From: a virus
Lineage: Duplodnaviria; Heunggongvirae; Uroviricota; Caudoviricetes
Reading direction: 5' to 3' (one strand)
DNA length: 4,532 nucleotides
IMG/VR virus record: IMGVR_UViG_2711768008_000012
Shown here piece after piece: positions 990-3,744 of this stretch. Each line of letters opens with the position of its first letter. Positions within the stretch are counted from its first letter, which is position 1. The translations under genes and the position numbers were made by a program. The notes beneath the pieces were generated by a model. It was not told where the DNA came from and searched no databases. It saw only the letters and a list, made by a program, of their open reading frames with translations.

Positions 990-1145
990 TTACTTCCTGG
1001 ATTCGTAGTCTACGAAGACAGCGACCTCCGTCTGGCCGGTTCGGATTCGTACCTCACAGAGGTCTTTCCTCGTTACCAGTGCCGTCACTATGACGGTTAA
1101 ACAGATGACGATCAGGGCGATTAACATCGCCTTTTGCTGCTTCAT
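990..1145 (-). CDS. hokD: Hok/Gef-family type I toxin (51 aa), hokD/relF-like
   Basis: Translation MKQQKAMLIALIVICLTVIVTALVTRKDLCEVRIRTGQTEVAVFVDYESRK matches my recollection of E. coli HokD/HokC over the first ~44 residues (single TM helix, conserved RKDLCEV and TEVAVF). ATG at 1145..1143 with AAGGAG 9 nt upstream; TAA stop at 992..990. The 70-aa ORF in the track is an in-frame 5' extension from the ATG at 1202. Confidence 0.85.
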   Translation of the reverse strand: MKQQKAMLIALIVICLTVIVTALVTRKDLCEVRIRTGQTEVAVFVDYESRK

Positions 1146-1303
1146 AGCCTGCTTCTCCTTGCCTTTCGGCATGTAAGAGGCTAACCTACATGTGCAAAGC
1201 ATGAAATTGGCCTCAGATTAATGTTAAGCGTCTTGCCGGACGCGTAATGTTAACTGGGGCTTTTCTCTATCTGCCTTTTGGTGTTCATGCCTGAAGCAGA
1301 TAG

Positions 1304-1319
1304 CCTCAAGCACCCGCAG
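1304..1319 (-). promoter_or_regulatory. hok mRNA 5' element (tac-like) complementary to the 3' end
   Basis: Lies immediately downstream of the predicted transcription start and pairs with 917-933 (see that feature). Confidence 0.45.
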
Positions 1320-1372: not shown

Positions 1373-2059
1373 TCACTCCTTCTCTTCTTTACCGTAGTGG
1401 AGTTGACCAATTTTGATAAGAGGGCGTCCCTGAGATTTGCGGTGTAGATTGGTATCGCGCAGAGAATACACACAGCCACAATATTCCTGCTGATAGAATT
1501 TTTCGCGCTTGCTGATTTCAATCATACGGGACGAGCCGCCCTGCTTGCGCCAGTTATAATCCCAGTACACCATGCCCGGATAATGCGCGACGGCTCGCCG
1601 CCCACAGTCGTTAACCTGCTGCATATTTTTCCAGCGTGAAATGCCCAGTGAACTGCTGATCACACTGAAACCATTTTCAGCGGCGTACAGCGCTGTCCGC
1701 TCAAAACGCATGTCAAAACACATGGTGCAACGGATCCCTCGTTCGGGCTCCCATTCCATTCCTTTGGCTCGTTCAAACCAGTTGTCTGTGTCGTAATCAG
1801 CATCAATAAACGGCACGCCGTGTTGTTCAGCAAAGCGAATATTCTCATCCTTACGAATTAAATACTCTTTCTGAGGATGAATGTTCGGGTTGTAGAAAAA
1901 GATGGTGTAGTCGATTCCCGAGGCCTGAAGCGCCTCCATCACCTCACCGGAACATGGAGCACAGCAAGAGTGCAGTAGTAGTTTGTTTGCCCCGTTTGGG
2001 AGCTCCAATTTGGGCCGTTTGAAATCAGCAACTGTCATAAATATGTTTATTGGGGTCAT
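1373..2059 (-). CDS. queH: DUF208 / QueH-like protein (epoxyqueuosine reductase family), 228 aa
   Basis: Contains the motifs I associate with QueH/DUF208: [11 protein letters not shown] near the N-terminus, [23 protein letters not shown], and [11 protein letters not shown] near the C-terminus. ATG at 2059..2057 has no obvious Shine-Dalgarno; an internal ATG at residue 8 is an alternative start. Confidence 0.75.
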
Positions 2060-2620: not shown

Positions 2621-3043
2621 TCACAGTATCGCCTCCTGAAAATTACCCTGATAGAAAGCCAGTACACGCTGCATAGCTTCGCTCTTCCGGCACTCGCGAC
2701 AGATTATATTCAGGCGCCTGTCGTAGCGGCGTATTTCTCCGTCAGGTAATGACCAGATAAGGTCCGGATCAACAACAACCGGTTTCCTCACCTTTACTCT
2801 CGAGAGTTTTTTGCGGGCGCTTTGCCAGTCCTTGCGAGCCTGTTCAGACGGGAATAAGCCGTAGCCAGAATTATATACATCACCACTTGCGACCAGTTCT
2901 ATGCATAAGCGACCGACAGACGCACGACTGATACCTGTTTCATCTGACAACTGCCGAATCGTGACCCGACCGTCCTGATGCACGAGTTCCACAATTCGCG
3001 TCTTCAGTTCTTCCCGCTGTTCGGGAGTAAAAGGTTTCGCCAT
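2621..3043 (-). CDS. Ren-like protein (lambda Ren family), 140 aa
   Basis: C-terminal ICRECRKSEAMQRVLAFYQ resembles the lambda Ren C-terminus as I remember it (KECRQSAAMKRVLAVYG), and the N-terminal half looks like a winged-helix/HTH segment. Sits directly downstream of the helicase-loader gene as ren does after P in lambda. AGGAGG 5 nt upstream of the ATG at 3043. Confidence 0.55.
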   Translation of the reverse strand: MAKPFTPEQREELKTRIVELVHQDGRVTIRQLSDETGISRASVGRLCIELVASGDVYNSGYGLFPSEQARKDWQSARKKLSRVKVRKPVVVDPDLIWSLPDGEIRRYDRRLNIICRECRKSEAMQRVLAFYQGNFQEAIL

Positions 3044-3057
3044 AAATCCTCCTGAAA

Positions 3058-3744
3058 CTACTTAACAACCCTCGAATGGCTAACATTCGGACGCCAGCTC
3101 TCCCAGTTAAAATTCACCCAGCGCCCGCCGTNNNNNNNNNNNNNNNNNNNNNNNNNNNNNNNNNNNNNNNNNNNNNNNNNNNNNNNNNNNNNNNNNNNNN
3201 NNNNNNNNNNNNNNNNNNNNNNNNNNNNNNNNNNNNNNNNNNNNNNNNNNNNNNNNNNNNNNNNNNNNNNNNNNNNNNNNNNNNNNNNNNNNNNNNNNNN
3301 NNNNNNNNNNNNNNNNNNNNNNNNNNNNNNNNNNNNNNNNNNNNNNNNNNNNNNNNNNNNNNNNNNNNNNNNNNNNNNNNNGATAGCTGCCGCTAAGTGA
3401 TTCTTCCCGGTACCAGGTTTTCCGCTGAACGCAAAATTTGTACACCCGGTCATCAGTTCATCGGCGATGGATTTCGCCTGGCTTAACGCGTATCGCTGGC
3501 CGTCGTTCTGCACCTGGTAATTCGCAAACGAGCATTTACGGTGCAACGGCTGGATGCCTGAGCGATTCAGAATTTTTTCCACCCGCAACTGGCGATTCAG
3601 GCGGTTGATCTCCTCGCTACGTTTCTGGCCTTCAGCAAGTTGCCACTCGCGCCACTCCGCTACCGTTCTGAATGGGGCGGTTACATGTGGCGGGGTCAGT
3701 CGGCGGATGCGTTCCAGAACGCCGCCTGTCGCAATATTTTTCAT
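3058..3744 (-). CDS. dnaC: DnaC-like replicative helicase loader (AAA+ ATPase), interrupted by the N-run
   Basis: The N-terminal 121 residues align closely with E. coli DnaC as I recall it, up to the Walker A motif (NRSGIQPLHRKCSFANY...FSGKPGTGKNHLAAAI). The C-terminal tail after the gap (RWVNFNWESWRPNVSHSRV) matches the DnaC C-terminus (LWVIFNWDSYRSRV). The central ~84 codons are N (3132-3381). The ATG at 3744 is 6 nt downstream of the upstream gene stop. Confidence 0.85.
   Translation of the reverse strand: MKNIATGGVLERIRRLTPPHVTAPFRTVAEWREWQLAEGQKRSEEINRLNRQLRVEKILNRSGIQPLHRKCSFANYQVQNDGQRYALSQAKSIADELMTGCTNFAFSGKPGTGKNHLAAAIXXXXXXXXXXXXXXXXXXXXXXXXXXXXXXXXXXXXXXXXXXXXXXXXXXXXXXXXXXXXXXXXXXXXXXXXXXXXXXXXXXXXGGRWVNFNWESWRPNVSHSRVVK
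3132..3381. other. 250-nt run of N (assembly gap or masked sequence)
   Basis: Directly visible in the sequence; it lies inside the DnaC-like CDS and its content cannot be assessed. Confidence 0.99.

Follow-up and report, generated by a model that had tools for sequence, protein, structure and literature searches.

The window analyzed in this study, a 4,532-nucleotide stretch of viral DNA (IMG/VR record IMGVR_UViG_2711768008_000012), raises the question of why a temperate phage should carry a gene for the last step in the synthesis of queuosine (Q), the reduction of epoxyqueuosine (oQ), when its hosts already have an enzyme for that step. A first-pass annotation, made from the sequence alone, had described the gene as a QueH-type epoxyqueuosine reductase carried as prophage cargo and had offered two possible roles for it, a change in the queuosine status of host tRNA or action on a 7-deazaguanine-type modification of nucleic acid.

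Identity of the protein as QueH

The protein gave a full-length match to the Pfam family PF02677 (QueH, formerly DUF208), covering profile positions 1 to 174 of 175 (1.9e-65; 220.6 bits, compared to a gathering score of 23.5 bits), as expected from its initial description as a QueH/DUF208 homolog. In the PDB, the QueH of Thermotoga maritima was matched over aligned residues 27 to 203 with 31% identity (E value, 5e-22). None of the NCBIfam models matched the protein, and the family is thus assigned from the Pfam and PDB matches and from the fold.

The protein was aligned with 49 homologs of 35% identity or more. Fifteen columns of the alignment were invariant, and all of these residues are present in the prophage protein: C32, C33, C36, N59, R69, E106, R110, C111, C114, R118, K144, Q191, C194, G195, and C196 (residue numbers are those of the 228-amino-acid open reading frame [ORF]). 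The seven family-invariant cysteines (C32, C33, C36, C111, C114, C194, and C196) lie in the motifs HxCCAPC, RCxxCF, and QxYCGC. The PDB contains C9S and D13N mutants of T. maritima QueH, which suggests that those positions are mechanistically important, and the ligand assignments made here come from the alignment together with the existence of these crystal mutants. Cys36, which corresponds to Asp13 of the T. maritima protein, was considered as a deviation from the crystallized enzyme, and this interpretation was rejected. Cysteine was found at this position in 71 of the 77 ungapped sequences among 86 family representatives, so that CCAPC is the family norm and the crystallized enzyme is the exception.

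The alignment was used to build an AlphaFold2 model (pLDDT, 94.6; pTM, 0.90), which superimposed on the crystal structures 7LC5 and 9D86 with a root mean square deviation (rmsd) of 1.2 Å and a TM score of 0.92 normalized to the crystal chain. The best Foldseek matches were 9D86, 7LC5, 7LC7, 9DCO, and 9DEU (rmsd, 1.2 to 2.0 Å; target-normalized TM, 0.90 to 0.92), and the E values of the next-best folds, TtuA, LarE, and PP-loop ATPases, were ten orders of magnitude weaker. The structure prediction that had been proposed as a check on the cysteine ligands thus found all of the cysteines in place and a close fit to T. maritima QueH. By every sequence and structure criterion, the protein is a member of the QueH family. 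This identity is not new, because the gene is already named “epoxyqueuosine reductase QueH” by PGAP, and the RefSeq entry, which covers at least 1,000 contigs, names it QueH, “MULTISPECIES ... [Enterobacteriaceae].”

The only PHROGs entry for the family is phrog_3217, which has 188 positions, is labeled “unknown function,” and matches residues 41 to 228 (window positions 1373 to 1939). The profile is QueH without the first 40 residues and hence without the CCAPC motif. Its start at residue 41 suggests that the gene calls behind it were truncated and began at the internal Met41. The entry could be reannotated as QueH.

Gene start and translation signals

The longest ORF, on the minus strand from 1373 to 2059 (228 amino acids), is intact, as first described, but the true start of the gene is probably further downstream. 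In an alignment of the upstream regions, ATG 2059 was replaced in some sequences (CATTAC in strain A10 and Enterobacter hormaechei), whereas ATG 2038 was invariant among the alleles and is the start chosen by PGAP. Thus, the gene most likely encodes 221 amino acids (Table 1).

The lack of a clear Shine-Dalgarno sequence was evident at both candidate start codons. Anti-Shine-Dalgarno duplex energies were +0.6 and +0.7 kcal/mol, compared to −9 to −11 kcal/mol for the neighboring genes, and translation of queH may therefore be weak. The gap between the upstream stop codon and ATG 2059 is exactly 147 bp (2060 to 2206), the length originally given for an AT-rich spacer; its AT richness is only mild (GC content, 42.9% compared to 49% for the window).

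Table 1. Features at the queH locus (window coordinates)
Feature	Position	Strand	Remarks
hok CDS	990-1145	minus	Pfam HOK_GEF, 9.8e-23; PGAP hokD
sok RNA	1140-1315		Rfam match, 117 bits
hok/sok type I toxin-antitoxin module	990-1351	minus	complete; directly after queH
Sigma-70-like site, TTGATT-18-TAGAAT	1351-1322		begins 22 nt past the queH stop
Mobile queH cassette, ~743 bp	1367-2109	minus	stretch common to differing prophages and the closest chromosomal copy
queH CDS	1373-2038	minus	221 aa; all conserved motifs inside; PGAP start; WP_012421537.1
Putative extended −10, TGcTACACT	2073-2081	minus	34 nt upstream of ATG 2038; comparative alignment
Noncoding spacer, zinc-ribbon ORF stop to queH start	2039-2206	minus	GC 41-43%; no Shine-Dalgarno; no intrinsic terminator
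Zinc-ribbon ORF	2207-2620	minus	118/137 aa; PGAP start 2563, good Shine-Dalgarno; weak match to phrog_1621 (unknown function)
DUF977/Ren-like gene	2621-3043	minus
Run of 250 N	3132-3381		inside DnaC-like ydaV

Prophage setting

Upstream of queH, on the same minus strand, the window contains an O-like replication gene, the DnaC-like gene ydaV, the DUF977/Ren-like gene, and the zinc-ribbon ORF. Downstream are hok, with its match to sok RNA, and then a NinB-like gene. This gene order agrees with the first-pass placement of queH between replication/ren genes and hok. Because 250 positions within ydaV are masked as N, that gene is not fully readable from the window. The sigma-70-like site between queH and hok is probably the promoter of the hok mRNA.

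An exact match was found in strain FDAARGOS_944, in a complete lambdoid prophage adjoining ybhA/modC. The first part of this prophage consists of integrase, cI/cro, ydaT, the O-like gene, ydaV, DUF977, the zinc-ribbon ORF, and queH, and the part after queH consists of hokD, a nin-like region, four tRNA genes, lysis genes, and head and tail genes. The tRNA genes of this prophage (L001, 17102 to 17412; Gly, Thr, Arg, and Ile) follow a Q-like antiterminator region and precede the lysis genes, and none of them specifies a queuosine-modified species.

The same slot is occupied by queH in an O157:H7 strain, an ST131 strain, and the wild-bird strain A10, and the genes after the slot differ. Phage markers were present in all of the 82 related loci that were compared, which comprised 80 IMG/VR viral loci and the loci of Escherichia albertii and Shigella flexneri. 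The gene immediately upstream of queH was DUF977 in 63 of the 82 loci; the zinc-ribbon ORF was interposed between DUF977 and queH in only 15.

The site downstream of queH holds variable cargo. It is occupied by hokD in most prophages (67/82) and by a Dcm methylase in 13 of the 82 loci. In some prophages, that of the O157:H7 strain among them, the methylase is accompanied by an NgoMIV-family restriction enzyme (L012, 3806 to 5816). In strain A10, a DUF1971 gene is found there.

Occurrence in Escherichia coli and in phages

DNA with 90 to 100% identity to queH was detected in 995 of 5,426 complete E. coli genomes (18%), with a median of one copy per genome and at widely different chromosomal positions. 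The strains that carry it include ST131, APEC O1, EAEC 042, and some O157:H7 and O111 strains. In contrast, queG was present in all 5,426 genomes, and prophage QueH therefore always coexists with QueG in E. coli. Surveyed for phage versus chromosomal context, queH in E. coli is thus an accessory gene, invariably placed in lambdoid prophages behind the replication module and DUF977, that stands alongside a universal queG, which upholds its description as prophage cargo and is not the distribution of an ordinary core gene of the host.

In IMG/VR, 188 viral contigs encoded a protein with 99 to 100% identity, and the gene neighborhoods examined were 80 loci from these contigs. One isolated phage, Escherichia phage HannyBb, carries queH (95.6% nucleotide identity; annotated as “hypothetical”). 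HannyBb was the only credible phage among 25 tblastn matches in a phage collection of 50,697 records. The other matches were distant; two of them were inspected and proved to be bacterial, and the rest were short fecal “Bacteriophage sp.” fragments.

A wider occurrence in phages was considered and rejected. The two inspected records, MT835504.1 and CAKLQH020000001.1 (“Acinetobacter phage MD-2021a”), are bacterial chromosome labeled as phage. In one, the homolog is flanked by genes for ABC transporters, argH, asd, and topA, and in the other by soxR, dadA, and tadA. The QueH homolog in CAKLQH020000001.1 bears the label “putative prophage protein.”

Chromosomal relatives and origin of the gene

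The QueH family is strongly conserved in Gammaproteobacteria, with 77 to 92% identity over many genera. The initial statement that enterobacteria normally use QueG for this step is correct for E. coli, but many Enterobacterales have a native chromosomal QueH that is 77 to 86% identical to the prophage protein, including Erwinia, Pantoea, Serratia, Rahnella, Pectobacterium, Dickeya, Proteus, Providencia, and Photorhabdus. Within most of these lineages the gene is syntenic. Judged from these genome comparisons, QueH is not foreign to the order Enterobacterales; it is native in several of its families and sporadic in Enterobacteriaceae proper.

Among 80 species-representative genomes, queH was found in a prophage context only in E. 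albertii and Shigella. At the other species-representative loci, none of 33 proteins of the L001 prophage was encoded within 8 kb of queH. Grouping of these loci by the synteny of their flanks yielded groups of Erwinia/Pantoea/Izhakiella (15 loci), Rahnella/Ewingella/Rouxiella (14 loci), Pectobacteriaceae (9 loci), and Serratia (9 loci) and smaller groups of Sodalis/Acerihabitans (5 loci), Enterobacter (3 loci), and Proteus (3 loci). In Providencia, queH adjoins tmcA, and in Photorhabdus and Lysobacter it is surrounded by ordinary chromosomal genes. The phage appears to have captured a housekeeping-type queH, since homologs with 77 to 92% identity are native and syntenic in Erwiniaceae, Serratia, Pectobacteriaceae, and Proteus.

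The nearest nonphage relatives are those of E. hormaechei (92% amino acid identity) and of Scandinavium and Kluyvera (91%). In E. hormaechei B56, the region around queH (L097, 7283 to 8690) has an ORF of 200 amino acids from the Phage_integrase family directly upstream of the gene, and a LysR gene and the budABC operon are located downstream. Because these flanks are common to no other species in the set, the E. hormaechei gene may sit on a small mobile islet. In Enterobacter quasihormaechei (L100) and Enterobacter pasteurii (L101), the queH flanks cluster with those of Rahnella, Ewingella, and Rouxiella and not with those of other Enterobacter species, which may point to transfer of a larger block or to a conserved neighborhood held in common.

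A mobile cassette with a promoter-like element

In most of the loci compared, nucleotide homology upstream of queH stops sharply at position 2109. Downstream it ends at 1367 to 1369 (HannyBb and strain A10), at about 1210, or at about 908. The chromosomal copy of E. hormaechei matches positions 1366 to 2102 with 83.5% nucleotide identity. From these sharp boundaries, the mobile unit can be delimited as queH plus about 70 nucleotides upstream of ATG 2038.

The short upstream part of the cassette contains a conserved element. The sequence CTCTGATGCTACA is invariant in all of the prophage alleles and in the chromosomal copies of E. hormaechei and Scandinavium, and the sequence around it diverges. 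The full invariant stretch, CTCTGATGCTACA(C/A)T, reads as TGn-TACACT, with TACAAT in Scandinavium, and it stands at a fixed distance from the gene in the 10 closest loci. Other lineages have −10-like hexamers of their own at the same place, for example, GTGACA-N17-TAAACT in Erwinia. The −35 sequence for the queH element is poor, and a scan for consensus sigma-70 promoters and terminators did not flag the element and found nothing in the spacer. On the comparative evidence, TGcTACACT may be the native queH promoter that traveled with the gene.

The scan detected no intrinsic terminator-like site between 900 and 2700, and the region after the queH stop codon folded no better than shuffled sequences (z = 0.29). 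With no terminator after queH, the cassette is not a textbook promoter-plus-terminator moron. Like a moron, it is a discrete and variable insertion between conserved phage genes.

Selection on the prophage copies

In a strict test, 86 of 87 prophage or viral copies of queH were intact. The one exception, the locus L014, and divergent chromosomal copies were flagged as possible pseudogenes, and this was rejected: the flag arose from differing C-terminal lengths, and L014 is intact according to PGAP. The 86 intact prophage or viral copies comprised 20 nucleotide alleles and only 6 protein variants. Pairwise dN/dS among the prophage alleles was 0.02 to 0.03 at a mean dS of 0.12, which indicates strong purifying selection on prophages and argues against a decaying passenger.

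Proposed function and alternative explanations

The explanation that we consider fairly probable is that the prophage gene encodes a functional, cobalamin-independent oQ reductase that acts on host tRNA and that was captured by the phage as a moron-like cassette. The cassette would have passed, with its own −10 element, from an Enterobacterales chromosome to a temperate lambdoid phage that resides in E. coli, Shigella, and E. albertii, where it occupies an accessory slot downstream of the replication/Ren-like module. The enzyme is predicted to bind, through the seven conserved cysteines, a [4Fe-4S] cluster with an iron site next to it and to convert the epoxide of oQ34 by reduction into the cyclopentene of Q34. 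It would act on those host tRNAs (Asp, Asn, His, and Tyr) in which the host enzymes Tgt and QueA have already formed oQ. In lysogens, queH would be transcribed from its own promoter, and during lytic growth it would be expressed by read-through from pR.

The genes tgt and queA are both present in E. coli, which has no de novo synthesis of the corrin ring. Because QueG depends on cobalamin, QueH would make the last Q step independent of external B12. Strains that carry prophage QueH thus probably possess a second enzyme that can stand in for the B12-dependent QueG of the host. Corrinoids are usually accessible to E. coli in the gut, and since every host also has queG, the benefit of B12 independence is conjectural.

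In work of Zallot et al. from 2017, queH genes reportedly complemented an E. coli queG mutant, with Q restored, and Acinetobacter baylyi is said to have both QueG and QueH. The Q pathway has been summarized (PMC9508795), and the final step in E. coli is described as cobalamin dependent in a passage of PMC4646009 that cites Frey 1988. QueG is counted among the few cobamide-dependent enzymes of E. coli (PMC11841063). In Staphylococcus aureus, QueG and QueH are redundant, and their differing expression profiles have been attributed to cofactor availability (PMC13443448). We infer catalytic activity of the prophage copy, its expression in lysogens, and a benefit from B12 independence, the evidence for expression in lysogens being the conserved −10-like element.

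It is possible, though we regard it as unlikely, that queH serves mainly as a tuner of translation in the lytic cycle and not in lysogenic conversion. QueH would then be produced chiefly from pR after induction or infection and would quickly convert the oQ-tRNA pool to Q-tRNA, either optimizing how the NAU/NAC codons of phage late genes are read or countering a host response that works through the Q level. In favor of this, queH belongs to the early-right operon, shares its strand with the replication and nin genes, and has no terminator on either side, and the presence of tRNA genes on the prophage indicates an investment in translation. Furthermore, in infection of Shewanella by a phage, the oQ-to-Q step (queG) was the regulated Q step and Q affected the outcome (preprint 10.64898/2026.03.05.709803), which makes a lytic-cycle role plausible. 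However, the NAU fraction of the prophage (0.54) was within the host range (0.53 to 0.65), so that these small samples showed no prophage-versus-host difference in NAU/NAC codon usage. In addition, the absence of Q-tRNAs from the set encoded by the phage speaks against such a role, and retention of the native −10 element argues for transcription independent of pR. The enzymology would be the same as in the preferred explanation, reduction of oQ in host tRNA, and both may operate together.

It is quite improbable that queH is a near-neutral passenger, a housekeeping gene acquired by illegitimate recombination that is redundant with QueG and of no benefit to phage or host. The universal presence of queG in E. 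coli, the missing Shine-Dalgarno sequence, and the fact that HannyBb was the only credible carrier in the phage collection would all be consistent with such a passenger. However, nonsynonymous or disruptive changes would then be expected, and these are what the intactness of the copies and the low dN/dS at the observed dS contradict. The cassette has also spread over mosaic prophages with different neighbors with its boundaries still sharp, and its presence in 18% of complete E. coli genomes is likewise difficult to reconcile with neutrality.

Of the two roles suggested initially, that in tRNA is favored over one in 7-deazaguanine-modified DNA. We know of no epoxyqueuosine-type base described in DNA. 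Although phages do put 7-deazaguanines in DNA (PMC6884629) and a restriction-modification cassette sometimes adjoins queH, it is highly improbable that the DNA of the phage contains a 7-deazaguanine derivative on which QueH acts and which shields the DNA from restriction, given that the annotated genes of the complete prophage include no DpdA/TGT-type transglycosylase, FolE, QueD, QueE, or QueC, that the protein is 77 to 92% identical to housekeeping QueH of the tRNA pathway, and that there were no PADLOC matches. The suggestion of a DNA substrate thus found no support. DpdA/TGT and preQ0 synthesis genes were also absent from the 16.7-kb stretch of HannyBb. A role in defense or antidefense was rejected because neither QueH nor its neighbors gave a PADLOC match.

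Implications

A 2019 survey of viral 7-deazaguanine genes found no homologs of QueA, QueG, or QueH (PMC6884629), and prophage QueH would qualify that absence of Q-specific enzymes in viruses. Literature searches that paired the enzyme family or its substrate with phages, as well as searches on the WP accessions of the protein, returned no report of a prophage QueH, and the phage-borne location of QueH appears to be unreported in the searchable literature. We offer as a tentative proposition that this is the first virus-borne queuosine-specific tRNA enzyme, that about one-fifth of E. coli strains gain cobalamin-independent Q-tRNA from it, and that lysogeny alters tRNA modification. The case of a temperate phage with an auxiliary gene related to translation is solid and testable but does not represent a new kind of system.

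To our knowledge, the last queuosine step is the only one that depends on B12. If a prophage removes this dependence, this would be lysogenic conversion directed at the translation machinery and not at toxins or surface structures. Queuosine status influences how Asn, Asp, His, and Tyr codons are decoded, and in E. coli it also affects metal and oxidative-stress phenotypes (PMC9508795). If the proposal is true, lysogeny would shift NAU/NAC decoding and Q-linked stress and metal phenotypes when corrinoids are scarce. A direct prediction is that lysogens with queH make Q, and not oQ, in B12-free medium.

Comparison with known systems

The queH cassette resembles lambdoid morons and auxiliary metabolic genes, such as lambda bor and lom and the cargo of Stx phages, in being a discrete unit that derives from a cell, is inserted between conserved phage modules, and has other cargo (hok/sok and restriction-modification genes) beside it. 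It has a promoter-like element of its own and may be expressed autonomously, but it differs from them in having no flanking terminator.

The DNA modification clusters of phages (DpdA with FolE, QueC, QueD, and QueE; Hutinet 2019) draw on the same wider repertoire of queuosine and archaeosine enzymes. Those clusters are without Q-specific enzymes, whereas the present prophage has QueH and none of the DNA modification genes.

With T. maritima QueH (PDB 7LC5, 7LC7, and 9DEU; IPR003828), the prophage protein shares the fold, the Cys/Arg/Asn motifs, and the length class. It differs from this cellular reference in being encoded by a temperate phage and not by a cellular chromosome, in having Cys36 in place of Asp13, and in a basic C-terminal tail of 25 residues that is common to the gammaproteobacterial homologs.

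QueG (YjeS), the cobalamin/[4Fe-4S] reductase of E. coli, is predicted to carry out the same reaction on the same tRNAs in the same cells. The two enzymes are not homologous, and QueH functions without cobalamin. QueG is part of the core genome (5,426/5,426), whereas QueH is accessory (995/5,426).

The native QueH proteins of Enterobacterales are the closest counterparts (77 to 92% amino acid identity), and the closest of these copies have the same −10 element and almost the same span of DNA. The native genes are in chromosomal neighborhoods that are conserved in most lineages, whereas the copy in the window is on a prophage that is found at variable chromosomal sites.
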